DNA from: Thioploca sp.
GTDB taxonomy: Bacteria > Pseudomonadota > Gammaproteobacteria > Beggiatoales > Beggiatoaceae
Assembly: GCA_030627125.1 (NCBI GenBank)
Contig: DAOUSR010000001.1
Span: forward strand, 14,784 to 78,783
Direction of reading: 5' to 3'
DNA: 64,000 nt
The first letter of the stretch is position 1; each line of letters opens with the position of its first letter. The translations under genes and the position numbers were made by a program. This document shows, piece after piece, positions 7,659 to 39,349 of the stretch. The notes under the pieces are model-generated. The model worked only from the letters and a program-made list of their open reading frames with translations. It searched no databases and was not told where the DNA came from.

Positions 7659-7930
7659 GTTATAATATCTGATATGGCATTCGCTTTGAACTCCAAATTT
7701 TTTAAAATTACATCATTGCATAATCAATAACTCAGAAAAAAAATATGAAATTTATGAAATTTATGAAATTAAATTTATTTCTTATAACTATATGTTTTAT
7801 ATTTAATTAATTCTTTTTAGCTTTTGTTAATGCGTAAGTCCTATAATAGTATATAATAATGTACAAGAGAATAGCTTTAAAAGTATTAAGCAAACTCACC
7901 AAACCAATATTCAAAATGAGAAATATGATT

Positions 7931-8824
7931 ATGTTCCAAAAAATATTAATGTTACTTTTAGCAGCTTTAAGCATTACTACGCATGCTACCAGTTTTTACT
8001 GTGATAAAGCAAACTTTGACTTGGAAAAAGTTATTTGCAATGACATGCTGCTCAATGAAGTAGATGAACAAATGGGAAAAGCCTATCTTAATTTGCGTAA
8101 ATTGCTTCCAAAAGATGCAACAACCCAATTAAAAATAGATCAACTTGCTTGGTTAAAACAACGTTCCCAATTTTGTCCATCTCATGATGCAGACTGTTTA
8201 ATCCGATTTTATCAAGCCCATATTAGTTATTTAAAATCACAACAATGTTCCAATTTACAAACAGCTATTAATTCAGCTTTGAAAGATACTGTGATTGAAC
8301 TTGAGGAAATAATTTGTCATTACAAAGATAGTTTGCAGATTAAAAATAAGGAACATCTAACAATTGAAGGCCAAGGAGATGTTTGGATTATCGTTGATAA
8401 TATTTATACTGATGTAATAAAAATACAAAATTCGCAACGGATATTTCTCAAGAATATCAAAGCTCGTCATCAAAAACCCCTAGATAATTTTAATTGTGAA
8501 GGTGCTGTAGTCAATATTATTAATTCTAATTATATTTGGCTCAATAGTTGCGAGCTTAATGGTTCTGGTGCTGTCGGAGTGCAAGCTGAGAAATCTACCA
8601 ATATTATCGTTAATCAATGTTACATACACCACAATACTTTAGCAGCATTTTGGTTAGATAATAGCGATTCCATAGCAATTCACGATAATACAATTACCGA
8701 AAATGGTTCGACAATTTATGGACTTACAGCTGGAAATATCAGAATGACTAATAATATTATTGGTAATAATAAGGGTAGCTTTACTTGGTCGTCTCCATTT
8801 ACTAGAGAAATTATGGGAGAATAA
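7931..8824 (+). CDS. Secreted LprI (DUF1311)-like domain plus right-handed beta-helix protein
   Basis: Signal peptide from M at 7931; SFYCDKA..LEKVIC...QLAWLKQRSQFC..DCL matches the LprI pattern; C-terminal I.NS..I...C..N beta-helix repeats. Confidence 0.7.
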   Translation: MFQKILMLLLAALSITTHATSFYCDKANFDLEKVICNDMLLNEVDEQMGKAYLNLRKLLPKDATTQLKIDQLAWLKQRSQFCPSHDADCLIRFYQAHISYLKSQQCSNLQTAINSALKDTVIELEEIICHYKDSLQIKNKEHLTIEGQGDVWIIVDNIYTDVIKIQNSQRIFLKNIKARHQKPLDNFNCEGAVVNIINSNYIWLNSCELNGSGAVGVQAEKSTNIIVNQCYIHHNTLAAFWLDNSDSIAIHDNTITENGSTIYGLTAGNIRMTNNIIGNNKGSFTWSSPFTREIMGE

Positions 8825-8886
8825 ATTATTATTTTAATTTGTAACAACAATACCATTAAATTAAGGACATAGCTCCTAAATAATTT

Positions 8887-8910
8887 GCAGGGGTAATCTG
8901 TGGTTACCCT
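8887..8910 (+). repeat. GTAG-type REP-like palindrome (degenerate copy)
   Basis: GCAGGGGTAATCTGTGGTTACCCT; related to the copies at 29760 and 51728. Confidence 0.6.
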
Positions 8911-8949
8911 AAATATGCAAAATCGTAGCAAGAAATATTTATAATAACT

Positions 8950-10209
8950 ATGAAAAAAAAACGTAATCCTAAAAAACGTAATCCTATTGTATCTTGTGAT
9001 ATTTGTTTAATCGTATATAACTCAGTATTACTACACGTAGAAACCCAAGACATTGTTGCTCAACCTGATGAATCTTTGCTTAAATTAACTGCTAGAGAAT
9101 TAGCAGAAGCAGCCAGACGTTTGTTACCAGTCACAACTAAACGGCCTCGAATTGCATTAGCATTACCAAGTGAAGAATTTGTCGCTACCAGTTTACAGTT
9201 ACCTGCTGTTGCAGCTCAAAATATCAAAAAAGTAGTTAATTTACAATTACCTACATTATTACCTGGAATTACCGAACCATTATTATTAGCGGTCCAAGCC
9301 CCTATCTCTGGCGAACAAACAACGGCTTTGTGGATGCCAGTTAAACGGGCCAATGAACTATTTCAAGCCTTTGACGAAGCAGGATTATTTTTAAACTGTA
9401 TTTTGCCTCGTCCACTAATTAGCTTACCATATACATTTATTCATTATCGAATATATGATGAAGATGAAGGTACTATTACCAGTATGGAATGCTCTGACGG
9501 AGTGATTCAGCACTGGCTGCATACAACTAAATTAGATTGTGATAATTCGGATTTTCACACTCAATTAGATGAAACCTTATCTGCTTTTAACAATAATATT
9601 GAACAAGTTAACAAGACCAGCATTGAGGATTGGGAAAAACAGCCAATGCCGTCAAAAAATGCCTATGACTATGCCTTTATTCCGCCAGGAGCCGCAGCTC
9701 ATATGGCACAAGTTGCCAAGAAAAAGAAACGACATTATTTAATTGGGGCTGCTTTACTGGTTGTTGTTGGTATTATCGGTGGAATTTATTACGCACTGGA
9801 CTATGAACGAGGTCTTAAGCAACATCTAACAGAATTAAAGAGTCGTACTGATAATGTTAGTCGTTTACGCTCGGAAGTTGGCGAGATAGAAGAACTAATT
9901 GGGCCAGTTAAAAATTTCCCCCGCCAAGAACTAGTAACAATGCTTGAATCTCTAAATACTCTAATCCCTAAGAATAGTTGGATTACGAGTTTTAATATTG
10001 AAACTGGGATTGTTAGATTAGATGGTTTAAGTCCAAACCCTAATAAAATTATAGAAGCATTAACCAAAGAACCTAATTTTATTGAAGTTGAGCAAAGTAA
10101 GGATATTGTTAAAAGTCGTGGTAAATCAGAAATGAAATTTGGAATAGAATTTAAATTAAAAGATGTAAATTTGGCAGATTATTGGTTGGAATATTTTCCT
10201 GATAGATAA
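8950..10209 (+). CDS. GspL/PilN-like type II secretion or pilus assembly protein
   Basis: Cytoplasmic actin-like N-terminal region, a single TM segment (YLIGAALLVVVGIIGGIYYAL), then a coiled coil and PilN-like LIPKNSWITSF..VRLDG domain. Confidence 0.6.
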   Translation: MKKKRNPKKRNPIVSCDICLIVYNSVLLHVETQDIVAQPDESLLKLTARELAEAARRLLPVTTKRPRIALALPSEEFVATSLQLPAVAAQNIKKVVNLQLPTLLPGITEPLLLAVQAPISGEQTTALWMPVKRANELFQAFDEAGLFLNCILPRPLISLPYTFIHYRIYDEDEGTITSMECSDGVIQHWLHTTKLDCDNSDFHTQLDETLSAFNNNIEQVNKTSIEDWEKQPMPSKNAYDYAFIPPGAAAHMAQVAKKKKRHYLIGAALLVVVGIIGGIYYALDYERGLKQHLTELKSRTDNVSRLRSEVGEIEELIGPVKNFPRQELVTMLESLNTLIPKNSWITSFNIETGIVRLDGLSPNPNKIIEALTKEPNFIEVEQSKDIVKSRGKSEMKFGIEFKLKDVNLADYWLEYFPDR

Positions 10210-10273
10210 TGGGTAGTAAGGCATATTTAAAACGATAGATTAATCTACCACTATGCAAAACTACCCAAAAAAA

Positions 10274-17874: not shown

Positions 17875-20800
17875 TCAATTGGATAATGCTATATCTTCCA
17901 CAAACCCAAATTCAAGCAACATCATACTAATATCTCGATCATCCTGCGAATGATGATCATATTCACTAGGAGAATTAGTTACTTTTGCTTCCAATTGCAA
18001 AAAAACTATGTCATTAATTAATGATAACGACTCAAATCGCAGCTCATTATAACCAATATGAATCTCTTGACTAGTATATGTCTCATTATCCAGCGTTAAA
18101 GTTAATTGATTAGCGTAATCTTGCCAAGTCTCTGGTACATAAGCCTTCACCACAAAACTTAAATTAGCCGAAGATGGTTTAGAAATAATACCCAAACATC
18201 TTTTGCCCATCCAATGATCCAGAAATACCCCATCAAAATTCTTCGGAATAATTTGCTGAAAATAACTAGCAGGAATAGCTGGTTTACAATCATTCAATTT
18301 TTGATTTAACGCTACCAAATCATCGTAAAATGGCTTTCGTTTACCTTGAGCATCAATGATTCCATTCTCTTGCCATATCTGATATAAGTAAAAATCAGCC
18401 ACTAAAATTGGACTACCCAAATTTTCTAATTGCAATTCATGATCTAGATAAAAAGGTATATTTTCTAAATGGATAGCTTGCCATTCAGCATTCGGTTCTG
18501 GAATAATAGTTATGGTATGAATTACAGCATTTTTATGAAGGACAGCCAGCTTCAATTTGCCAGTTCCATCCGCAGTTTTCAATCTGAAATCTAATTGGAA
18601 AGGTTTGTCTTTAACATAAGGCACTCCCACGCACCAAGCTAATAACTGACTGAGTTTACCACCCGAACTTAACAATACCGCTTGACTATTGCTATCAGAC
18701 ACAATTTCGGAATTTTCTAACTTCCAACATGGATAATCTCGAGCAAAAATACCATTTTTCAACGCATTAGCCCGCACATCTCGTAATGTCCACATGCCAT
18801 AACCAACAGTATTATGCCGTAAAATATCCGCTACTCCAGTTAAAAAATTTGGCATTTCTTCAGCAGTAATACCAGTGTTATGTTCAAAACCGGGGGTATT
18901 ATCGATGAAGTTAAACTGATCGATGAATATCATATTGTTAGTTTTAGAACGAATATGCTCAAACATAAACTGCATCCGCTTCAAAATAGTTGCCGCTGAT
19001 TCTAAGCCACCATCGTTGGAAGCTCCCCAAGCTGGGGTATAATAAATTGTGCTTACATTAGTATCGCTAGTCAAATCAAAGGTTTGTTCGTGACAAATAA
19101 GGCTATCTTCTTGCGGATCACAATCAGTCCTAATTTCCATCGACAAAGCCGGAAAATGTTGTTTTGACTGTTTAAAAATCACCTTGATTAAAATTTCATC
19201 CCAAAATTCGCAAAATAGCTGAATCGCACTGGATTTAAACTCTGGAATTGGCACTTCATTATAATTGGCAAATGGCTGTTTATAACGGTTAGCAACTTCA
19301 GCAATGCTATAATGGGTTTGCAGATAACTCTGATAACCGCTACGAGCCGCAAATAACAGCCGTTGGTCGAGCGGAATATGGGTTAAATCCATGAAAAAGA
19401 AGTCTTCCCAAGTGATGAAACCGCCTAAAATATTGGGATAAGTTTTGGCTATAGCCCACAACCGATCCAAATAATCGCACCACGCTTCCATGGTCGCAGT
19501 ATCAGCTCCAATCACTACCTGTCGTAAAAAGCCTTCCGGTTCATTATCGGGGCCATTGTCATGGCTATAACCAAGTCGTAATATTACCTGTAAATCAAAA
19601 TCTTGAATCCGCTCTAACAATTGTTCAAACAGAGTGAAATATTCCTCATAATACGTGATCGGCTCCACTTTAGTCTGAAAGCCAACCCAAGGAATTAACA
19701 AGATCACGGTATTAAACCCAACCGATTGAATAAACTCTAATTCTGCATCAACTTGCTTTAGATTTAAATAACTCCAAAAATTAGCCGCCCAGCCTTGGGC
19801 TAAGAAATGAGTTGCTAATATTTTACCAGTTGGAATCCGAAATTTAGGTGGTTGATTGGTTGCGAACCGGAAAGCTGCTTCTTCATGGGAAGATTGGGGT
19901 GGTGGCAACGGATGGGTGGCTAATACTTCCCACCATTTAGCTTGAAATTTTTTCCGATTAATAGCTTGATAAGCTTTATAACCAGTTTGAATATCAGTGC
20001 CAGCAGTGATTCCTTCATGGTGAATTACTTCAGAATCATGACAGTAAATAACTTTATAACCTGCAGCACGAGTTGCAAAACATAAATCGGTATCTTCGTA
20101 GTAAGCTGGGGCGTAGCGTAAGTCAAATCCACCGATTTGCTCCCATAAAGCTGTCCGAATCATTAAGCTGGCACCAGAACAGTAATCAACTTCTCGATTT
20201 TTATTATATTTAGGTTCGGTTGGTTCTTGTAATCTACCATAATTCCAACCACTTGCATCACTAAAAATGATTCCGCCAGCTTCTTGCAATCGGCCATTCG
20301 GATAGATCAACTTAGACCCAGTAATCCCAACTTTTGGTTCATCAGCCATAACTTTAACCATATTTGCCAACCAACCGGGCAGCACCTGAGTATCATTGTT
20401 CAAAAATAATACAAATTTACCTTTAGCTATGGCAGCACCTTGCCTACAAGCTTCAACAAAACCTTTATTATCTTGATTATTAATAACTTGGAATGGACCT
20501 TGGAGCTGGTCTAATAGGTCTATGGTTGCATCACTGGACGCATTATTGACAATGATAATTTCTTTGCTAATTTCTGGATCGTACTTTTGCACTGTTAGCA
20601 AACAATTATAAGTATATAAAACTTTATTAAATATTGGAATTACAATGCTAACTGTAGGTTCTGCAACGGCTGGCAAAATTATAGGTTGAGGACTGACGGA
20701 ATTTACAAATTGTGGTAACAACCGATTGCATAAAATAGCTACTGTATTATTTTCACTAGCATCTTCGGAATAAATAGCAATTTCTAACGGCTGATTTGGA

Positions 20801-21138
20801 ATGCACTTCTGTACAGTTGGAAAAGGAATGTCTATATATTCATTATCAATTAAAAAATTAGCATTAAAACTATGATGAAATTTATTTATTTTTATAGTTA
20901 TATGGCAATTATTAATCCGACAATAAGTTCCAAATCTAAGGCGAATTCCAGTTATGGTGTCATTATTAGGAATTAGGTGACAAAGAACCCCAGCTTCAGC
21001 TAAAGAAATCGGTATATCACCATCGACAATGGTTGGAGTTATAGTTTGGCGTTGATTACCTAATAAGATAGCTGTAGGTAATTTATCAGTTATGGTGGGT
21101 TTAGAAGGTTTAGATGTTAAATATTTTAGGAAATTCAT
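17875..21138 (-). CDS. Family 2 glycosyltransferase fused to a glycoside-hydrolase-like TIM barrel and beta-sandwich domains
   Basis: VSIVIPIFNK, FLNNDT and YYEDTDLC (GT2); GFNTVILLIPW, TWEDF and ENGIIDAQGKRKP (clan GH-A-like). Confidence 0.75.
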   Translation of the reverse strand: MNFLKYLTSKPSKPTITDKLPTAILLGNQRQTITPTIVDGDIPISLAEAGVLCHLIPNNDTITGIRLRFGTYCRINNCHITIKINKFHHSFNANFLIDNEYIDIPFPTVQKCIPNQPLEIAIYSEDASENNTVAILCNRLLPQFVNSVSPQPIILPAVAEPTVSIVIPIFNKVLYTYNCLLTVQKYDPEISKEIIIVNNASSDATIDLLDQLQGPFQVINNQDNKGFVEACRQGAAIAKGKFVLFLNNDTQVLPGWLANMVKVMADEPKVGITGSKLIYPNGRLQEAGGIIFSDASGWNYGRLQEPTEPKYNKNREVDYCSGASLMIRTALWEQIGGFDLRYAPAYYEDTDLCFATRAAGYKVIYCHDSEVIHHEGITAGTDIQTGYKAYQAINRKKFQAKWWEVLATHPLPPPQSSHEEAAFRFATNQPPKFRIPTGKILATHFLAQGWAANFWSYLNLKQVDAELEFIQSVGFNTVILLIPWVGFQTKVEPITYYEEYFTLFEQLLERIQDFDLQVILRLGYSHDNGPDNEPEGFLRQVVIGADTATMEAWCDYLDRLWAIAKTYPNILGGFITWEDFFFMDLTHIPLDQRLLFAARSGYQSYLQTHYSIAEVANRYKQPFANYNEVPIPEFKSSAIQLFCEFWDEILIKVIFKQSKQHFPALSMEIRTDCDPQEDSLICHEQTFDLTSDTNVSTIYYTPAWGASNDGGLESAATILKRMQFMFEHIRSKTNNMIFIDQFNFIDNTPGFEHNTGITAEEMPNFLTGVADILRHNTVGYGMWTLRDVRANALKNGIFARDYPCWKLENSEIVSDSNSQAVLLSSGGKLSQLLAWCVGVPYVKDKPFQLDFRLKTADGTGKLKLAVLHKNAVIHTITIIPEPNAEWQAIHLENIPFYLDHELQLENLGSPILVADFYLYQIWQENGIIDAQGKRKPFYDDLVALNQKLNDCKPAIPASYFQQIIPKNFDGVFLDHWMGKRCLGIISKPSSANLSFVVKAYVPETWQDYANQLTLTLDNETYTSQEIHIGYNELRFESLSLINDIVFLQLEAKVTNSPSEYDHHSQDDRDISMMLLEFGFVEDIALSN

Positions 21139-21342
21139 ATTTTAAATGGGGGCTAGGATTTAGCTTGTGTTAACCGTAAATAACTGATATTACGAAAATT
21201 GATTCTCAACTTCAATAAGAAGCGGAAGAGGTTAGAAGATTTCTGCGTAACATCAGTAAATATTTGAGTTTAAACTTCGACAACCTCGTATTTTTGCTTC
21301 TGGCTTAAAAAAATCCTATTTAAGTTAGGAATTTGATATTTT

Positions 21343-21516
21343 CTATTCTTCCTTTAGCATCATAACTTGTACATAAGACTTAATTATACCAGTTTCGCTA
21401 AAAGCCAAAACAACATTTTCATAGGGTTTATAACCTTCTTGTATCTTCTCATTAACTGACTTAACTAATTGTTTATCATATTGTTCTACGATAGTTATAT
21501 ATATAGGTTTTTCCAT
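21343..21516 (-). CDS. Small DUF1737-like protein
   Basis: MEKPIYITIVE..LVKSVNEKIQEGYKPYE...YVQVM pattern; the ATG at 21516 is preferred over the upstream start in the ORF track. Confidence 0.6.
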   Translation of the reverse strand: MEKPIYITIVEQYDKQLVKSVNEKIQEGYKPYENVVLAFSETGIIKSYVQVMMLKEE

Positions 21517-21585
21517 TGTGTATTCCAAGTTTAGTTTATACAGGTAAAATTTAATACTATAATATTTTAATTTTTTTAGCAAGAA

Positions 21586-23871
21586 TTAATGATTCAGAAA
21601 AACTCCTAATTGTCTATCTTGTTTATTGATATGTATAATAAACCATTCGATTAATTCTTCTTTAATGCGTAAAGTTAGGTATAAATTGCTACCATTATTT
21701 TCATAATATTTTATAATACTTTTTAAATTATTTATAAATTTTTCGTGTTGATTTTTATGGATGGTATAGAGCGGATAATTATTTTGCTTCATGTAACGTT
21801 CTTCAGTGGAAAAATGCACAGTGACATAACTTTTTAAAAAATTAATTTTTTCTACTATTTCATTATCTGATTGGCTTTTAGCTATTGCTAACATTAACTG
21901 TTTCATCCTAACAAATAATTCCCGATGTTGATTATCTATAGTTTTATTATGAATTGCTAACTCCGTAGTCCAGTCAGTTTTTTTGATTAACTCTTCCCAT
22001 AATTCAATATTTTTAGTATTTAAAAATTTCTCACAACGTTGTACATATAATTTCGCAACTGTATCGTAGGGATTAGTTTGTAAGCATTTTCGCATTAATT
22101 GTTCAGTTTCAACAAATTTTTGTTGCTGATATAAATTAACTGCTTGTTCAAATAGTTCTAAATTGGCTAATTTACCATCTTTAATATTTGGTTCTTCACT
22201 ATTAAAAATCTCAAAAATATTAAGACATGCAGACCGTCCTTTAACCTTGATATTGTCAATAAATCGATATTTATATAGTGAAGCATCCACCAAAGTATCA
22301 AAAGTATTTTGACTTATAATACATGAAATCTGATAAGTTTTAGTAGCAGTTTCAAGTCGAGAAGCAACATTTACCGTATCACTAATAACAGTACATTGAA
22401 GTCGTTTTTTTTCACCAATAATACCCAACATTAATTTACCAGTATTAAGCCCTATTCCAGCTTCAATTCCTTGATGTTTTTGAGCTTTTATCATAGCAAT
22501 AGCTGCATTTACTGCATCATCCGCATTAATAAACAAAGCCATAACGGCATCACCTATGTATTTGTCAATGATACCATGATTAGTATGAATAATTGGGATA
22601 ATTTCACTAAGATAGGCATTGATAAAATTAAAATTTTCTTGTGGCGACATTTTTTCCGATAGACTAGTGAAGGAACGAATATCTGAGAACAATACTGTCA
22701 TATTCAATTCTACATGGTTACCTAATTGAATATCAAGTATATTTTTTTTATTTAACAATTGTAACAATTCATTAGGCACAAACCGTGAATAAGCTTGATT
22801 AGTTTTCCGCAATACTATTCGAGCATAAAAAAAAGTCAATAATATTATGCTACCAGTAAAAATAAGATAGGTTATAAAAATAACTTGAGCATTTTGTTTA
22901 AGCTTTGTAGCAGACATTCTTAATTCAGAAGAAATTTTATTTTCCACCTGTTTTAATAGATTAATTCTACCAGTTGCCATTTTCCACCAACTATTCGGTC
23001 CTGTCATGACTACAACGGATTGTAATATTTCATAATCTAGCAATTTAGGTTGGTTATCTGATTTGAAAAAATCGGTAAATCTATGTTTATAATTATTTTT
23101 GACATTCTTCTTGAAAACAGTTGCTCTAATATTATTGATTTCATCAATAAATTTTCCTTGTATAATATCTGTATAGAATTGTTTTTGACTATCAGTTGCT
23201 AGAAATAAAAAATTTTCGCTATAGATATTCTGGGCTTCAATTAAAGCAATTATATCTCGAAATAGATTAGAATTAAAGTCACCTTGGATTAAAGTCGCAT
23301 ATATAGTAGCTCTCTCTATACCAGCCTTTTCCTTGAGTCGTAATAAATAAACATAAGGCATTATTTTATTAGCAAATTCATTACTAGAAAGTGTTTTTGC
23401 TATATGATTAATGTCAGTCAAAATCATAGCAATAAGTTCGTTATAAATATGTATTTGTTGGTGTACTGAAATATTAAAATTATCAATAGAATGTCTTTTA
23501 TTAGCAATTATATTTAACTCATCCAAAACTATTTTAAACTTATTACGAATATCATTAGTACCAAACTTCACTAAAAACTCACTCAATTCTTGTTTAGCCT
23601 TATCAGTTTTAAATCTTTGTTTTTGAAGTTCGGGAAATTGTTTAATACCATTACTACTAATCATACCAGCAGAGATACCTCTTTCTTTCTGTAATTCATG
23701 GATTAACGCACTTGACTTAACAGTAATTTCAAAGAAATCTTGTAACTGATTCATTTGTCTAACTATATTTAACTTTTCCAAAGTGATAGTTGTAGTGAAG
23801 TAAATTAGTCCTAGCATTGGAATAGCTAACATAAAAGCTAATTTATTAGTTATTTTTATATTTCTTAGCAT
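21586..23871 (-). CDS. Membrane class III adenylate cyclase with a periplasmic NIT domain and a C-terminal hemerythrin domain
   Basis: Two TM segments; HELQKERG and KEKAGIERA (NIT); FSDIRSFT, DKYIGD and TVISDTVNVASRLE (cyclase); IDNQH, HFSTEE, HKNQH and HINKQD (hemerythrin). Confidence 0.85.
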   Translation of the reverse strand: MLRNIKITNKLAFMLAIPMLGLIYFTTTITLEKLNIVRQMNQLQDFFEITVKSSALIHELQKERGISAGMISSNGIKQFPELQKQRFKTDKAKQELSEFLVKFGTNDIRNKFKIVLDELNIIANKRHSIDNFNISVHQQIHIYNELIAMILTDINHIAKTLSSNEFANKIMPYVYLLRLKEKAGIERATIYATLIQGDFNSNLFRDIIALIEAQNIYSENFLFLATDSQKQFYTDIIQGKFIDEINNIRATVFKKNVKNNYKHRFTDFFKSDNQPKLLDYEILQSVVVMTGPNSWWKMATGRINLLKQVENKISSELRMSATKLKQNAQVIFITYLIFTGSIILLTFFYARIVLRKTNQAYSRFVPNELLQLLNKKNILDIQLGNHVELNMTVLFSDIRSFTSLSEKMSPQENFNFINAYLSEIIPIIHTNHGIIDKYIGDAVMALFINADDAVNAAIAMIKAQKHQGIEAGIGLNTGKLMLGIIGEKKRLQCTVISDTVNVASRLETATKTYQISCIISQNTFDTLVDASLYKYRFIDNIKVKGRSACLNIFEIFNSEEPNIKDGKLANLELFEQAVNLYQQQKFVETEQLMRKCLQTNPYDTVAKLYVQRCEKFLNTKNIELWEELIKKTDWTTELAIHNKTIDNQHRELFVRMKQLMLAIAKSQSDNEIVEKINFLKSYVTVHFSTEERYMKQNNYPLYTIHKNQHEKFINNLKSIIKYYENNGSNLYLTLRIKEELIEWFIIHINKQDRQLGVFLNH

Positions 23872-24047
23872 GGTTTGTCTTAATTTAGGTTAGAATTTTA
23901 AATTGTAGATTTTTCATAATTTGAATCCAAGGTTTATTATCTAAAGTTTGTAAAAATCTCCTGAATTTAAGGATTCTCTATATTATAAACCTAAAACAAT
24001 TACAATACTAACGCTATATGTAACTTTCATGAAATATTATATAATAT

Positions 24048-24183
24048 CAATAATTCGGACAGTTTTTAAAAAATAGACCCAAGTTAAAAATTAATTCATT
24101 GAAATTGAAGCATTTTATAGTTTTATCGTGAAAATAAAAAATACTTTAATAACAAATAGTTATAAAAACTGTCCGAACCATTG
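24048..24183. mobile_element. MITE, 136 bp, with terminal inverted repeats and a 6-bp target-site duplication
   Basis: CAATAATTCGGACAGTTTTTA ... TAAAAACTGTCCGAACCATTG, flanked on both sides by TAATAT; related copy at 39155. Confidence 0.8.
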
Positions 24184-24328
24184 TAATATAAAAAAATAAG
24201 TATTTTGTCACTGTTTGATATCAGTTTATGTTTTTATATATCTTATTTTTGATATTTCTTAGTATCCATAACTTTTTGCTTCTATACAAGTTTTAATACG
24301 GTAACATTGTCTGTATGCTAAATATAGC

Positions 24329-25544: not shown

Positions 25545-26624
25545 TTAAATCTCCACTACAAAAATAGAACCTTGGGGCTGATTAGGCCGAACTGAAATTG
25601 TGCCACCATGAGCATCAACAGCCATTTTACAAAAAGTTAAACCCAACCCTACCTGTACAATACCTTGTTTTTTTAAATCCACAACTTCAAATTTTTCAAA
25701 GATTCGGTTTTTATATTCTTCTGGAATACCACTACCTTGATCCATAACCTGCATACATAAATGGGGTTTATTGTCAGTGTATTTAGTGCTTAAACTTAAT
25801 GTAACTGCACTACCACTTGGTGAATATTGCAAAGCATTAGCTAATAAATTACCAATCACTCGCCAAAATAAATTACGATCTAATTGCATTGAGAATGATG
25901 GATTAGGTAATACTAGTTTAAGTTCAATACCTTTTGAGTGGGCAATAATATTAAAGTGTTTTTTTGCTTCTGAAATTATCTGATTAACATCAACTATGGT
26001 GGGGTTTAAACGTAATTTGCTCTCCTCCATTTTTGCTAACATCAACATATCATTGACAAAAGAATCAAGTCGTTCTGCTGATAAACGAATCATTTCTAAA
26101 TGTTTTTTTAATTCTACATCTTTAATCTTTTCTTCCATTAACGTTGCATGTAGAAGTACAGAAATAATTGGACTAGACATATCATGCACAATCATATTAG
26201 ATAATTCTTCACGCATTTGTAATGTGGCTTGCAACTCATCATATTGTTTTTTAATGCGTAACATGGAACGTACTCTGGCCCGTAATTCCAATGAGGTCAC
26301 TGGTTTTTGTAAAAAATCATCTGCACCAGCATCAATTCCTTGAGTTAAGGCTTTTTTGGTATCTAAAATAGTAACTAAAATTATGGGGATATTTTGAAAT
26401 TGAGCATTAGTTTTAATTCTATGGCAGATTTCAAAACCATCTATTCCTGGCATCATTAAATCTAGAATAATTAAGTCTGGCATTGTTCTAGCTAACTCTG
26501 CAAATATTTTTCTACCATCTGCCAACAATGTTATATCATAATTTTCTTGTTTTAACATGGACTCTAGCTTTATGCGCTGACTTTGTTCATCATCAACAAT
26601 CAAAATTTTGCTACGTGGTCTCAT
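25545..26624 (-). CDS. Hybrid receiver-histidine kinase (REC-HisKA-HATPase)
   Basis: ILIVDD..LDLMMP; IVHDMSSP H-box; NLLANA, DQGSG and GLGL boxes. Confidence 0.9.
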   Translation of the reverse strand: MRPRSKILIVDDEQSQRIKLESMLKQENYDITLLADGRKIFAELARTMPDLIILDLMMPGIDGFEICHRIKTNAQFQNIPIILVTILDTKKALTQGIDAGADDFLQKPVTSLELRARVRSMLRIKKQYDELQATLQMREELSNMIVHDMSSPIISVLLHATLMEEKIKDVELKKHLEMIRLSAERLDSFVNDMLMLAKMEESKLRLNPTIVDVNQIISEAKKHFNIIAHSKGIELKLVLPNPSFSMQLDRNLFWRVIGNLLANALQYSPSGSAVTLSLSTKYTDNKPHLCMQVMDQGSGIPEEYKNRIFEKFEVVDLKKQGIVQVGLGLTFCKMAVDAHGGTISVRPNQPQGSIFVVEI

Positions 26625-26828
26625 AATGCCCTTTTTAATTAGCTTATAGATTCGAGGAGATTTTTAGATATATTAACAGGATGTTAACAAAAGCTCAAAG
26701 AAATGACTAAGAAATTTTCTTAAAATTCAAGTTATGTTAATATTTTTAGGTACTGTTGTTATTATAAATTGATGTTACGCAAATTCTAACTGCCCTTCCT
26801 TGGGAATGATTAGGGGAAGTAACATCAG

Positions 26829-28361
26829 TTATATACTACTTAAAATAACTTGAGAAATCACTTTTAATAGTTTTTCTGGATCGATTGGTTTGGTAAGATA
26901 TTGATTACAACCTATTTCAAGTGCATAATTACGATCACATTCAATATTAGAACCAGATAAAGCAATAATAGGCTTAGTAAATTTTTTAGCTCTTAATTTT
27001 TGTACTGCCCCATAACCATCAAGTACTGGCATTTGCATGTCCATCAAAATTATATCTGGTTTAGTTTGTAGTGCTAATTTAACTGCTTCATCTCCATCAT
27101 TTGCGGTTATCACTGCATAACCATCATTTTCTAAATATAATTCTATTAAACTCCGCAGATCAACACTATCATCAACCAGTAATATTTTAATATTACTATT
27201 ACTTATCTCGGTATTATCTGAGACTGAAAATTGTACCGAATTAGCAGATATAAATCCAGTAAAATTGGAACCAAATTGTGGTGATGATTCAACAGAAAGT
27301 TGTCCTCCCATTAGTTCCACTAAATGATAACTGATTGCCAATCCTAAACCAACACCAGGTAAAGCATTAGCCGTACTTTCACGATGAAAAGCAGTAAAAA
27401 TTTTCGGCTGTGATTCTGGAGAAATACCTGGGCCACTATCTGTAACAATAAATTCTAAACGATTATTTTGCCAAGTTATTTTTACTTCTACAAAACCTTT
27501 ATCAGTAAATTTTATGCCATTAGTTATTAAATTTATTAAAACTTGGCGGAATCTCAATTCATCAATAATTAGTTGTGTTGGTAAATTATCAGGAACTTCA
27601 ACACTAAACATCAAATTTTTTTCTTGAGCGATTGGTAAAAATAGAGATTTTAAATCAACCAGCAGTTGTTTAACGTTACAATTGTTAGGATGTATTTCTA
27701 TTTGACCAATTTCTAATTTTGTCTGGTCGAGGATATTATCAATTAAAGATAATAAATGATTAGCATTTTTTTTGACGCTATCTAAATAATTAGATTCATA
27801 TACATCGGCTTGTTTAGCATCATCTAATAATTTAGTATAACCCATAATTGAGGTCAATGGGGTACGCAGTTCATGTGATAATGTAGCTATAAAATCATTT
27901 TTTAACTTACTAGTTTGTTCAAGTTGTTGTTTTTCTGCAGATAGTTTTATTCTAGTAGTTTCTAATTCTTGCAATAATTGGCTTTGTCTATAAGTTAAAA
28001 TACTTAATTCATTCACTTGCTGCTGCATTTTTTGCTGTCTATCATGTTCAGCAGTTACATCAAGCAATAATACATAAATACCATCTTCTAAAGGTACAAT
28101 ATGTACGTGAATACAACGATTACCTCCTATATTTAGATATTGTAATACCTCAGTATGAGTTATATCCAAAAAACCGTTCAGAAAATCTACTTGGTCAACA
28201 ACTAATTTATCTTTGGTTAATGTGGTTAAGCCATAACGTTGTGGATATCCGCCCCAATCAATTAAGCGACCTTCTGCATCAATATGTAGATAAGTCAAAA
28301 TCATTTCTGCCATCCACATTGATTGAACATATTCAATGACACTTGCAGGAATGTTAGTCAT
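26829..28361 (-). CDS. Hybrid histidine kinase with an uncharacterised PAS-like input domain (input-HisKA-HATPase-REC)
   Basis: SHELRTPL, NLITNGIKFT, DSGPG, GLGL; C-terminal REC (LMDMQMP, KP). Confidence 0.9.
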   Translation of the reverse strand: MTNIPASVIEYVQSMWMAEMILTYLHIDAEGRLIDWGGYPQRYGLTTLTKDKLVVDQVDFLNGFLDITHTEVLQYLNIGGNRCIHVHIVPLEDGIYVLLLDVTAEHDRQQKMQQQVNELSILTYRQSQLLQELETTRIKLSAEKQQLEQTSKLKNDFIATLSHELRTPLTSIMGYTKLLDDAKQADVYESNYLDSVKKNANHLLSLIDNILDQTKLEIGQIEIHPNNCNVKQLLVDLKSLFLPIAQEKNLMFSVEVPDNLPTQLIIDELRFRQVLINLITNGIKFTDKGFVEVKITWQNNRLEFIVTDSGPGISPESQPKIFTAFHRESTANALPGVGLGLAISYHLVELMGGQLSVESSPQFGSNFTGFISANSVQFSVSDNTEISNSNIKILLVDDSVDLRSLIELYLENDGYAVITANDGDEAVKLALQTKPDIILMDMQMPVLDGYGAVQKLRAKKFTKPIIALSGSNIECDRNYALEIGCNQYLTKPIDPEKLLKVISQVILSSI

Positions 28362-28391
28362 TTATTTTATCTCCATAATTATTTTTAGAGT

Positions 28392-28417
28392 AAGGGGTTA
28401 AAATTTTATCCCCCTAC
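28392..28417 (-). repeat. GTAG-type REP-like palindrome
   Basis: Minus strand GTAGGGGGATAAAATTTTAACCCCTT. Confidence 0.5.
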
Positions 28418-28441
28418 ATATATTATTTTAAAACTTAATAT

Positions 28442-28945
28442 TTATTTAGTCATAAGTAATGCTAATTCCAAAAATGCTTGTTCTACATTCATACCGTTTT
28501 TAGCACTAGTAAGTAATAGTTTCCAGCCTTGTTTAGTTTTTTCTTCCATTAATTCCTCAGTAATTTCCCATTGTTCTTTTAAATCAGCTTTATTTAATAA
28601 TATGACAAAAGGTTTATCACCAATTTGTTTTAAAACTGTTTGTCGTAAATTTAAAGCACTATCCCACGTTGGACGACGAGTTCCATCGACTACTAGCAAA
28701 AATCCGGCTGAACCACGCAAATAAGATGTAGTTGCTGTTGTCAAAGATTCGCTACCAGCAATATCCCATAAAATAAATTTTATTTGATTGCCATCTGGTA
28801 ATGTTAATAATTTTGTATCTATCTTAACTCCTACTGTAGTTAGATATTTGTCAGAAAAAGTTTGACGTACGAATCTAGCAACTAAACTGGTTTTACCAAC
28901 CGAGAAATCACCAATCATACAAATTTTTTTCTGTAGTATTGCCAC
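28442..28945 (-). CDS. Rab/Ras-like small GTPase
   Basis: G1 GDFSVGKT, G2 YLTTVG, G3 WDIAG, G4 NKAD, G5 TSAK; AGGAG RBS before the GTG start. Confidence 0.9.
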   Translation of the reverse strand: MAILQKKICMIGDFSVGKTSLVARFVRQTFSDKYLTTVGVKIDTKLLTLPDGNQIKFILWDIAGSESLTTATTSYLRGSAGFLLVVDGTRRPTWDSALNLRQTVLKQIGDKPFVILLNKADLKEQWEITEELMEEKTKQGWKLLLTSAKNGMNVEQAFLELALLMTK

Positions 28946-28979
28946 AAATTCTTCTCCTTAAAATTCTTTTAAGAAAATT

Positions 28980-29480
28980 TTAATAAAATTTTTTCTTACA
29001 TACAGTCGCTAAAGACTGTAGTTTTTTAATTATAAACTGATTTTTAAATTTATCAATTTGCTTAATAGCTGTAGTATTTTCTTCTAAAGCTTGTAACAGT
29101 TGATTTTTATAAACAGTCAACAATTTAAGGTCGTTAATCTGTTGTTGCATTTTTTGTTGCTGTTTATATTCAGAAGTTGCATCAAATAATAATACATAAG
29201 TGCTATTATCACAAGATATAATATGTACATGAGTATAATACCCTTCAGCGAAACTTACAAAGCGTAATACAATAGTATCAGTAGTTGGTAACATACCTTC
29301 TAAAAACCCCAATTGCTCAATAATAGGTTGTTTAATTGTCAAATCCGATATTCCTAAACAAATGAGGTCTCCTTTCCAACTAATTAGATTATCATATTCG
29401 TCAATATGTAAACAAACTACTATATTCGCTTCTCTGATAGAACTAATGTATTTTGCAACGCTTATGGGGAATGCGGTCAT
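28980..29480 (-). CDS. Stand-alone paralog of the input domain of the 26829-28361 kinase
   Basis: Shared LHID..LI.W.G, FL.G.L, HVHI, YVLL.D.T.E...QQKMQQQ.N.L..LT; AGGAG RBS supports the start at 29480. Confidence 0.75.
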   Translation of the reverse strand: MTAFPISVAKYISSIREANIVVCLHIDEYDNLISWKGDLICLGISDLTIKQPIIEQLGFLEGMLPTTDTIVLRFVSFAEGYYTHVHIISCDNSTYVLLFDATSEYKQQQKMQQQINDLKLLTVYKNQLLQALEENTTAIKQIDKFKNQFIIKKLQSLATVCKKKFY

Positions 29481-29759
29481 TTTGTTTCTCCTATGTCTCA
29501 TATGCAGTTAGATAAATTAAAAACTGGTAAATTTAATTATTTTCTATGACTACCAAGGTTTTTCTTAAGTATTAAGCAAAAAATAAACCATTTTTAAAAC
29601 ATTAGTTATAGAAAACTGTAAAATACAATTAATATTCCACATATATTAAATTTTATTCGTATCATGATATAGCAGAGTGACCGCATTAAAGATGAATTAC
29701 CAAACACAAGCTTAGCTTGATAATCATCATTCCAATAAATGAATATAAAATATTGATTT

Positions 29760-38746: not shown

Positions 38747-39154
38747 AATTATTATGTCCAGAATGAATTTTGCTTTCAAATATATCTATGATTAAATTTA
38801 AAAGTACTTGTTTATGTCAAATTTTCATTATATAATGCTACGAGTACTGGGAACTACACATCATATTACATACGTGGTAACTTGAAAATATTTTACATGT
38901 TAAAATATTATCAGTCACATTTTAGAAATTATTCCTTATAATTATTTAGTGTACACATAACTATCAAGATTGGCTAAATTTTTTAGAACTATGTTACCAT
39001 AGATTTATTATTTATGAATCATAACCTAGCACAATCTTTTCATTCAAAGAATCCAAAAATATTATATAGATTTAGATTTTAAATTACAAAGAATGGTAAT
39101 CTTTTTGCATTATAAATAAGTTTAAAACACATTATATGATTGTTATATTAACTT

Positions 39155-39267
39155 CAATAGTTATGACAGTTTTTAAAAAATAAATGCAGGTTAAAAAATT
39201 AATTTACTGAAGTTTAATTATTAAAATACTTTAATAACAATCAGTTGTAAATGCTACCGAACCATTA
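39155..39267. mobile_element. Degenerate second copy of the 24048 MITE
   Basis: CAATAGTTATGACAGTTTTTAAAAAATA...AAAATACTTTAATAACAA..CCGAACCATT, flanked by TTAACTT direct repeats. Confidence 0.7.
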
Positions 39268-39349
39268 TTAACTTGATACATAGATAATTTTAAGTCTAAT
39301 ACTTAAAGTATATTGAATTTATTTCTAACTGTTTTATATTGAATTATAT

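Follow-up and report, generated by a model that had tools for sequence, protein, structure and literature searches.

A probable receptor cyclase gene in Thioploca

We analysed 64,000 nucleotides of a Thioploca sp. contig (DAOUSR010000001.1, assembly GCA_030627125.1; hereafter the window), in which a gene on the minus strand encodes P0001, a protein of 761 amino acids (aa) in one unbroken open reading frame (ORF). Its parts follow each other in the order transmembrane (TM) helix, NIT domain, TM helix, class III cyclase, TPR-like hairpin and bacteriohemerythrin, and the ORF, the Pfam matches and contigs of public sequencing runs agree that a bacteriohemerythrin domain is here fused with a functional domain within one polypeptide chain (Table 1). 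A first-pass annotation, made from the letters alone, had proposed that this one cyclase could sense both nitrate and oxygen. Contigs of the public runs X1 (21680-24078) and X2 (20500-24083) match the gene with 0 differences, which establishes the domain fusion as real and excludes an assembly chimera or a frameshift behind it; the two runs bear different study codes, X2 possibly being the source run of the assembly itself. Every catalytic and ligand site of P0001 is conserved and the gene is intact. A Kyte-Doolittle scan places hydrophobic segments on either side of the NIT domain, from which a periplasmic NIT domain and cytoplasmic cyclase and hemerythrin domains are predicted.

Table 1. Positions of the P0001 gene, its parts and adjacent features in the window, and of the long paralogues on their own contigs
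Feature	Position	Strand	Basis or remark
NIT-adenylate cyclase-TPR-like-hemerythrin gene (P0001)	21586..23871	-	ORF, Pfam, NCBIfam, zero-difference contigs
Predicted TM helix 1 (aa 11-29)	23785..23841	-	Kyte-Doolittle; found too in 8 homologues bearing NIT
Predicted periplasmic NIT domain (aa 55-317)	22921..23709	-	Pfam; NasR 4akk alignment and fold
Low-confidence NIT insert of about 35 aa (aa 255-290)	23002..23109	-	Model (local confidence score pLDDT <50 at 255-280), alignment
Predicted TM helix 2 (aa 330-348)	22828..22884	-	No HAMP after it, unlike the long paralogues
Class III cyclase domain (aa 390-556)	22204..22704	-	Pfam, CyaB 3r5g alignment, structure comparison
Three-helix TPR-like unit (aa 566-621)	22009..22176	-	Structure model
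Bacteriohemerythrin domain (aa 632-760)	21592..21978	-	NCBIfam, motif, fold
57-aa DUF1737-like gene	21343..21516	-	Pfam, orthologue comparison; 69 bp downstream of the P0001 gene
MITE-like repeat, about 145 bp, 24-bp terminal inverted repeats	24042..24186	.	170 bp upstream of the start codon
Long paralogues	G000:C152:5477-8230, C227:18256-21015, C137:1806-4556 (-)		

Sensor and catalytic domains of P0001

The N-terminal domain matches the NIT family (PF08376) well over the cut-off (E 7e-46; 158 bits against 24.9), and both arginine motifs that had been read between the two TM helices, ELQKERG (R64) and KEKAGIERA (R187), are present. We aligned it with the nitrate regulator NasR of Klebsiella oxytoca (4akk), reconciling the tag offset of the structure file with the published residue numbers: E63/R64, E186/R187 and R249 of P0001 fall on E49/R50, E175/R176 and R236 of NasR, and the NIT part of the P0001 model superposes on 4akk with Z 30.9 and a root-mean-square deviation (rmsd) of 3.0 over 273 aligned residues. 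In a NasR-based sensor the R50A and R176A variants lost the response to nitrate (PMC9581486). E63, R64, G65, E186, R187 and R249 are at least 90% conserved across 73 NIT-bearing rows, a set selected on E63/R64 in which only the remaining positions act as a test of conservation. Both arginine motifs are also kept by 50 of 55 NIT homologues outside the cyclase family (P0150-P0204, mostly chemoreceptors).

Residues 390-548 match Guanylate_cyc (PF00211, E 5e-18), and the closest solved relatives of the domain are CyaB, OaPAC and bPAC. In the alignment with CyaB (3r5g) seven residues are identical: the metal-binding D397 and D441, the substrate-specifying K437 and T494, the transition-state residues N501 and R505, and the phosphate-binding K544. 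The two Asp, the Lys/Thr pair and the NxxxR motif of the first-pass annotation were thus all recovered; a Ser replaces the usual Gly three residues past T494, as in the subfamily consensus. Together with the CyaB alignment, we take the Lys/Thr pair to mark an ATP-specific class IIIb cyclase, and GTP-specifying residues of the animal NIT-guanylate cyclase type do not occur in the P0001 cyclase, where K437/T494 are of the ATP type of CyaB. The helical repeat announced behind the cyclase is there as helices (571-582, 586-599 and 604-618 in the model); it is one three-helix unit and no tandem TPR, since Pfam finds no TPR in P0001 at E<0.01 and only weak TPR matches in the homologues. Nor is it specific to this system: 108 of the 150 best cluster representatives combine cyclase and TPR-like unit without a hemerythrin, and the unit is a generic tail of this cyclase subfamily.

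The C-terminal domain is matched by Pfam Hemerythrin (PF01814, aa 643-755, E 1e-9) and by the NCBIfam bacteriohemerythrin model NF033749 (92.2 bits, cut-off 84). Its seven di-iron ligands, H649, H686/E690, H705/H709 and H747/D752, make up the complete H-HxxxE-HxxxH-HxxxxD set (motif as in PMC9388753) that had been noted before, in a four-helix bundle with an N-terminal Trp loop. The fold matches DcrH-Hr (2avk) with Z 18.0 and rmsd 1.7 over 129 aligned residues, and F744 occupies a pocket position held by Leu in DcrH and by Phe in the L114F variant of McHr (4xpw). Among 57 hemerythrin rows of the NIT-cyclase clade described below, which were selected on H747/D752 and include two paralogues entered twice, E690, H705 and H709 are found in all 57, H649 in 56 and H686 in 53; H705 is replaced by Gln in 32 of 44 cyclase-hemerythrins without NIT. 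The expectation that such di-iron sites sense oxygen fits the O2-type ligand set and needs correcting as to how: the characterised enzyme-linked bacterial hemerythrins are controlled by the oxidation state of the iron and not by ligand binding (PMC9388753). According to the same source, Bhr-DGC of V. cholerae and Bhr-HD-GYP of Ferrovum are both more active in the diferrous state, and the N-terminal loop of DcrH is ordered when oxidised and disordered when reduced.

Paralogues in the host genome

P0001 turned out to be neither a lone gene nor unique in its architecture, being one of four paralogues in the genome and having relatives in other genomes. In the host genome, which is 84.9% complete, we counted six NIT proteins and 18 matches to cyclase domains. 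Four genes have the NIT-cyclase-TPR-hemerythrin arrangement (contigs C121, C137, C152 and C227); the other NIT proteins are a NIT-HAMP-cyclase of another cyclase subfamily (C161) and one NIT chemoreceptor, and four of the six hemerythrin domains of the genome sit on NIT-cyclases.

The three long paralogues, of 917-920 aa, also carry a HAMP domain and, inside the NIT domain, an insert of about 110 aa. This insert (aa 262-385 of P0044; also in the C152, C227, C137 and C161 proteins) is four-helical and sensor-like, with no Pfam family over the cut-off and no solved relative by sequence; its look-alikes in the Atlas are TorS-, CHASE3-, PilJ- and 4HB-like and name no family. It may be a third input of the long forms. 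In the alignment P0001 has its low-confidence insert at the very site that holds this domain in the long paralogues, and the insert is likely a remnant of it. In the C137 paralogue (L004, L015) Asn replaces the two metal-binding Asp and Ile the specificity Thr, while the NIT arginines and every iron ligand are retained; P0046, its nearest neighbour in the tree, is intact. The residues of the C137 protein suggest a catalytically impaired regulatory subunit. The C161 protein (7794-10271, minus strand; L006, L012) carries NIT, insert and HAMP on a different cyclase subfamily, with Asp for Lys and Ser for Thr and without hemerythrin. From these residues it is possibly a guanylate cyclase; relatives of this type occur in genomes G016 and G018.

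Distribution and history of the family

We surveyed 55 genomes from 27 genera of the order and classified their NIT frames with local profiles, six short NIT matches (frames of 120-237 aa) standing outside the classification. NIT was found in 37 genomes and NIT-cyclases in 15, belonging to 4 genera. NIT, cyclase and hemerythrin occur together in 23 frames from 11 genomes, and two further genomes have truncated frames; elsewhere in the order most NIT domains belong to chemoreceptors, and a few weak matches fall on kinases. The TPR-hemerythrin part used alone as query gave matches at E<1e-50 in 12 genomes of the same 4 genera. Seven of the 11 genomes with complete frames have a tandem pair of NIT-cyclase genes, and in three genomes of the same genus the P0001 orthologue follows immediately on that of the C227 long form; here the two genes of this pair are separated. 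Named relatives carry the depositor labels Marithrix, Halobeggiatoa, Parabeggiatoa, Thioploca and Thiomargarita, the closest of them Marithrix, Halobeggiatoa and Thioploca, and database entries for members read 'bacteriohemerythrin' or 'nitrate- and nitrite sensing domain-containing protein'. A contig scan with exact peptide words returned 4 close relatives and one unrelated hemerythrin; the 4 duplicate regions already fetched and were not recounted.

Two trees of the cyclase part were calculated, the first with P0054, P0076, P0078, L098_x and G0_C152_8485 as non-NIT rows, the second score-filtered, and both without the partial P0077 and P0218. They are quick, midpoint-rooted trees with support from the Shimodaira-Hasegawa-like approximate likelihood ratio test (SH-aLRT) only, and any order of events taken from them is a suggestion. 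The NIT-cyclases of Beggiatoaceae type group in a single clade (SH-aLRT 97 and 99), with short forms and hemerythrin-less forms nested among long forms; P0011, which has the insert and no HAMP, adjoins the short ones. Beyond this clade the cyclase-TPR-hemerythrin cassette is found alone (for example in Syntrophorhabdaceae-labelled proteins) or behind REC, PAS, GAF, Cache or kinase domains. In the simplest history, offered as a suggestion, this cassette gained NIT once and was afterwards duplicated and trimmed.

Two high-GC, alanine-rich proteins outside the clade, P0227 and P0240, have the arrangement NIT-HAMP-PAS-cyclase-hemerythrin, with ligand motifs that are full by eye and Pfam hemerythrin scores slightly under the cut-off. 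An approximately unbiased (AU) test rejects their joining the NIT-cyclase clade with p 0.005, for a group chosen after the first tree had been viewed and on a long, GC-biased branch; they likely form a second, independent NIT-cyclase-hemerythrin lineage. With a hemerythrin-NIT chemoreceptor as query, 20 of the best 120 matches were proteins of this kind, several labelled Terasakiella and many with incomplete ligand motifs. With these chemoreceptors and the P0227/P0240 lineage, the NIT-hemerythrin pairing recurs across cyclases and chemoreceptors. The chemoreceptors of the form hemerythrin-TM-NIT-TM-HAMP-MCP are P0185, P0361-P0375, P0378, P0380, P0387 and P0402, some from named Terasakiella species that are possibly cultured. 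Unusual NIT fusions seen on the way were P0141, a TIR_2 plus NIT protein of 755 aa, and P0241, a chemoreceptor of 1385 aa with three NIT domains.

Host physiology and possible cAMP targets

The host had been described as a nitrate-storing sulfur oxidiser. Its genome carries dsrA, ccoN (cbb3 oxidase), narH and five cytochrome cd1-family proteins (contigs C257, C118, C188, C194 and C189), and a putative NarK-like transporter was labelled by reading its sequence. Neither narG nor napA gave a match over the cut-off in the assembly of this 85%-complete genome. A host without narG was nevertheless rejected: contig C83 ends in the start of narG, and the gene is tiled, and the assembly gap bridged, by contigs of X1 and X2, two runs that also hold the window; napA was not found in the 85%-complete genome. 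A partial duplicate of the 3' part of narG at C139:1-175 seems to break the assembly, and the narG contig of G019 ends at almost the same base; narH lies with narJ/narI-like genes on a separate contig (C105:10412-13184). An 894-aa molybdoenzyme with a twin-arginine-like leader (C94:1497-4178; L119) is distantly NapA-like, its scanned part scoring far under every NCBIfam cut-off. Matches to narG occur in 12 of the 15 NIT-cyclase genomes against 12 of the 40 others, a comparison that, its carriers being kin, is no statistical test. The respiratory and sulfur genes are in line with the description except for the storage, which found no support: vacuolar nitrate was undetected in Ca. Marithrix, a taxon reported to be sessile as well (PMC4971068). 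With this and with no fusion found in 23 of the 27 genera, a link of the fusion to nitrate storage was set aside as unsupported.

Six cyclic nucleotide-binding proteins were found in the genome: a pair of MscS-type channels, two stand-alone domains, a DUF294 protein and a single CRP/FNR-family regulator, whose score is far under the CRP cut-off. The channel proteins (C152:31568-34966 and C108:3631-6999; L113, L115) are about 1130 aa long and combine a large extracytoplasmic region at the N-terminus with an MscS channel and a cyclic nucleotide-binding domain; they are candidate channels gated by cyclic AMP (cAMP). As two of the six are channels and only one is a CRP/FNR regulator, cAMP probably acts largely on the channels and the stand-alone binding proteins. 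The regulator gene (C126:19674-21030; L117) is divergent from a stand-alone HHE hemerythrin-like gene, and we take the two to resemble a nitric oxide (NO)-stress module.

A proposed nitrate and oxygen receptor cyclase

We propose that P0001 is probably a dimeric receptor adenylate cyclase of the inner membrane with two inputs, periplasmic nitrate or nitrite and the oxidation state of the cytoplasmic di-iron site. Nitrate or nitrite would be bound by the outer NIT domain between R64 and R187. Binding of the anion would shift TM helix 2, and in a protein without HAMP the signal would pass via a short helix into the catalytic dimer; in the full-length model a single long helix, 292-361, spans from this TM helix to the cyclase. 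From the C-terminal side the hemerythrin would act by packing on the cyclase-TPR unit, joined through its N-terminal loop, and its di-iron oxidation state would report oxygen to the cyclase. The cyclase-TPR-hemerythrin part was modelled with a predicted template modelling score (pTM) of 0.81, consistent with a defined arrangement of the domains. Tentatively, output might peak when the NIT domain holds nitrate and the irons are reduced, which would make an AND gate for 'nitrate present, oxygen absent' where oxic and anoxic zones meet; its direction is guessed by analogy with the two characterised hemerythrin enzymes, both of which show higher activity in the diferrous state.

A number of observations weigh against this proposal. 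The full-length model reaches a pTM of 0.50 and does not capture the transmembrane coupling. Four close clade members have Val or Gln at H686 and one has Asn at H649, and nested within the clade are NIT-cyclases that end after the cyclase or the TPR part, which makes the hemerythrin dispensable in some members. The NIT-cyclase fusion is absent from searches of 23 of the 27 genera, many of them with narG or napA. There are no nitrogen or oxygen genes near the P0001 gene, and upstream of it no FNR, CRP or NarL-like box was found with up to 2 mismatches to consensus patterns. The post hoc group of the AU test belongs on this side as well.

Other accounts of the two sensors are conceivable. That NIT binds nitrate, which the first-pass annotation took as established, fails as a rule: neither nitrate nor nitrite bound to the NIT domain of PA4520, and the authors of that work proposed NIT subfamilies with other ligands (PMC6381276). 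Combined with the arginine motifs, which do not single out this family given how many homologues outside it keep them, this would allow a redox-regulated cyclase whose NIT domain binds another small anion or none, with some other outer ligand. We hold this to be very unlikely, as the four NasR pocket positions tested by mutagenesis are all kept in P0001, the family co-occurs with narG, and nitrate-binding NIT chemoreceptors are reported (PMC10832524). A second exception to the rule comes from Platynereis, where NIT-GC1 produced cGMP after an NO donor and the NIT domain was required (bioRxiv 10.1101/2023.08.02.551600). In P0001 the NIT domain could then read periplasmic nitrite or an NO derivative and the di-iron site NO, as an alarm for intermediates of the cell's own denitrification; the five cytochrome cd1-family proteins of the genome would suit such a role, as would the affinity of the NasR-based sensor, about 2 uM for nitrite versus about 90 uM for nitrate (PMC9581486). 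Such an alarm is in our view unlikely: the hemerythrin is of the canonical DcrH/McHr O2 type with its five-His set, NasR answers to both anions, and the NIT-GC1 authors themselves could not rule out that the true ligand is nitrate or nitrite (bioRxiv 10.1101/2023.08.02.551600).

It is also conceivable that there is one input only, P0001 being a nitrate/nitrite receptor cyclase whose hemerythrin came with an older cassette and serves as iron-occupancy sensor, local O2 buffer or passive tail. The wide occurrence of the cassette without NIT, alone or behind the other input domains listed above, and the nested hemerythrin-less NIT-cyclases speak for this. We nevertheless consider it improbable, with the iron ligands better preserved in the NIT clade than in cassette-only proteins, four of the genome's six hemerythrin domains on these cyclases, and the pTM of the cyclase-TPR-hemerythrin module. 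A larger extension of the two-input proposal seems quite unlikely as well: short, long and catalytically dead paralogues might heterodimerise as a combinatorial array in which the long forms add a third input, possibly a sulfur compound, and the balance of acceptors and perhaps the donor would be turned into one cAMP level gating the two MscS-type channels. If that were true, the array would be the missing sensor for how filaments read the oxygen-nitrate-sulfide boundary, and would hold the first hemerythrin-regulated adenylate cyclases within the literature searched.

Relation to known systems

Our two-input proposal joins elements known separately. The animal NIT-guanylate cyclases (Platynereis NIT-GC1; the group was first noted in PMC1592074) likewise combine NIT with a class III cyclase and need the NIT domain for activation; they make cGMP, an NO donor is the stimulus shown, and the accessible text mentions no hemerythrin, whereas P0001 has the ATP-type Lys/Thr pair, two TM helices and a C-terminal di-iron domain. 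NasR shares the NIT fold and pocket residues with P0001 and differs in being soluble, with an ANTAR RNA-binding output for the control of nitrate assimilation and without membrane part, cyclase or O2 input. DcrH of Desulfovibrio vulgaris is built like P0001, with a periplasmic sensor, two TM helices, a cytoplasmic output and a C-terminal canonical hemerythrin with an equal ligand set; its output is that of a chemoreceptor, its periplasmic domain is not described as NIT in the accessible text, and its pocket has Leu where P0001 has Phe. V. cholerae Bhr-DGC and Ferrovum Bhr-HD-GYP resemble P0001 in having a hemerythrin on a second-messenger enzyme, in their case regulated by the iron oxidation state, but they are enzymes of c-di-GMP, carry the hemerythrin at the N-terminus and have one input. 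The cyclases CyaB of Pseudomonas aeruginosa, bPAC of Beggiatoa and OaPAC share the Asp, Lys, Thr, Asn and Arg residues; bPAC and OaPAC have BLUF light inputs, and none of the three has NIT, TPR tail or hemerythrin. The input domain of CyaB is presumably MASE2. The logic proposed here, nitrate weighed against oxygen in one pathway, is known from NreA-NreB of Staphylococcus (PMC8199190), although these are two unrelated cytoplasmic proteins, a GAF nitrate receptor and an O2-sensing kinase, with two-component output and no homology to P0001.

The accessible part of a 2022 review names no hemerythrin-regulated adenylate cyclase. Our literature search, with most subscription journals outside it, found no study of such a cyclase or of the P0001 architecture, in agreement with the first-pass annotation, which knew of no characterised protein of this kind; nor did the literature searched hold a Beggiatoaceae gradient-sensor protein beyond an annotated nitrate sensor/regulator pair. 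NIT with a cyclase in animals and hemerythrin with c-di-GMP or chemotaxis outputs are thus known, and their combination in the P0001 family, expanded in this lineage, is new; with all parts from known families the surprise is moderate. Beggiatoaceae live where gradients of oxygen, nitrate and sulfide cross, and here a single polypeptide, in four copies in the lineage, unites sensors of both acceptor types with an easily assayed output. The hosts are known here from assembled genomes only, and redox sensing of uncultured sulfur bacteria becomes testable in E. coli. If our proposal is correct, adenylate cyclase joins the outputs controlled by hemerythrin, the family is a bacterial counterpart of the animal NIT-guanylate cyclases, and P0001 could be used as a genetically encoded nitrate-AND-anoxia gate.

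Neighbouring genes and other features

The P0001 gene is divergent from rplM-rpsI and is followed by the 57-aa gene and a glycosyltransferase gene. Neighbours vary among 20 fetched regions, and a conserved operon with nitrogen or oxygen genes was rejected. The small DUF1737-like gene announced downstream is indeed there, most likely beginning at ATG 21516 to judge from its orthologues; its match to DUF1737 (PF08410; 18.5 bits, E 0.002) is below the cut-off of 24 and its link to the cyclase is loose and not system-specific. It is single-copy and adjoins the short cyclase gene in 3 of 5 genus genomes tested, an adjacency on which a dedicated partner of the cyclase was rejected. Promoter-like sites upstream of the P0001 gene are at chance level (25 versus 25.9). 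Upstream lies a repeat resembling a miniature inverted-repeat transposable element (MITE), with 16 near-full-length matches in the genome including this copy, and a second copy within the window near 39140-39270. From the RNA run X15, five listed contigs, 151-240 bp long, fall on the P0001 gene, with 5-20 differences each and a depth of 2-3.5; these come from a relative and are possibly of DNA origin, and we did not use them as evidence of expression.

Elsewhere on the minus strand of the window, positions 17875-21138 encode a 1087-aa protein with a GT2 glycosyltransferase domain at aa 164-333 and a long C-terminal part that has no Pfam match and by eye resembles a glycoside hydrolase barrel. 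Positions 25545-29501 hold an unusual module in which a small GTPase of the Ras/Roc family (Pfam Ras, E 5e-32) clusters with a REC-histidine kinase, a hybrid kinase and a PAS-like protein of 173 aa that Pfam does not match.

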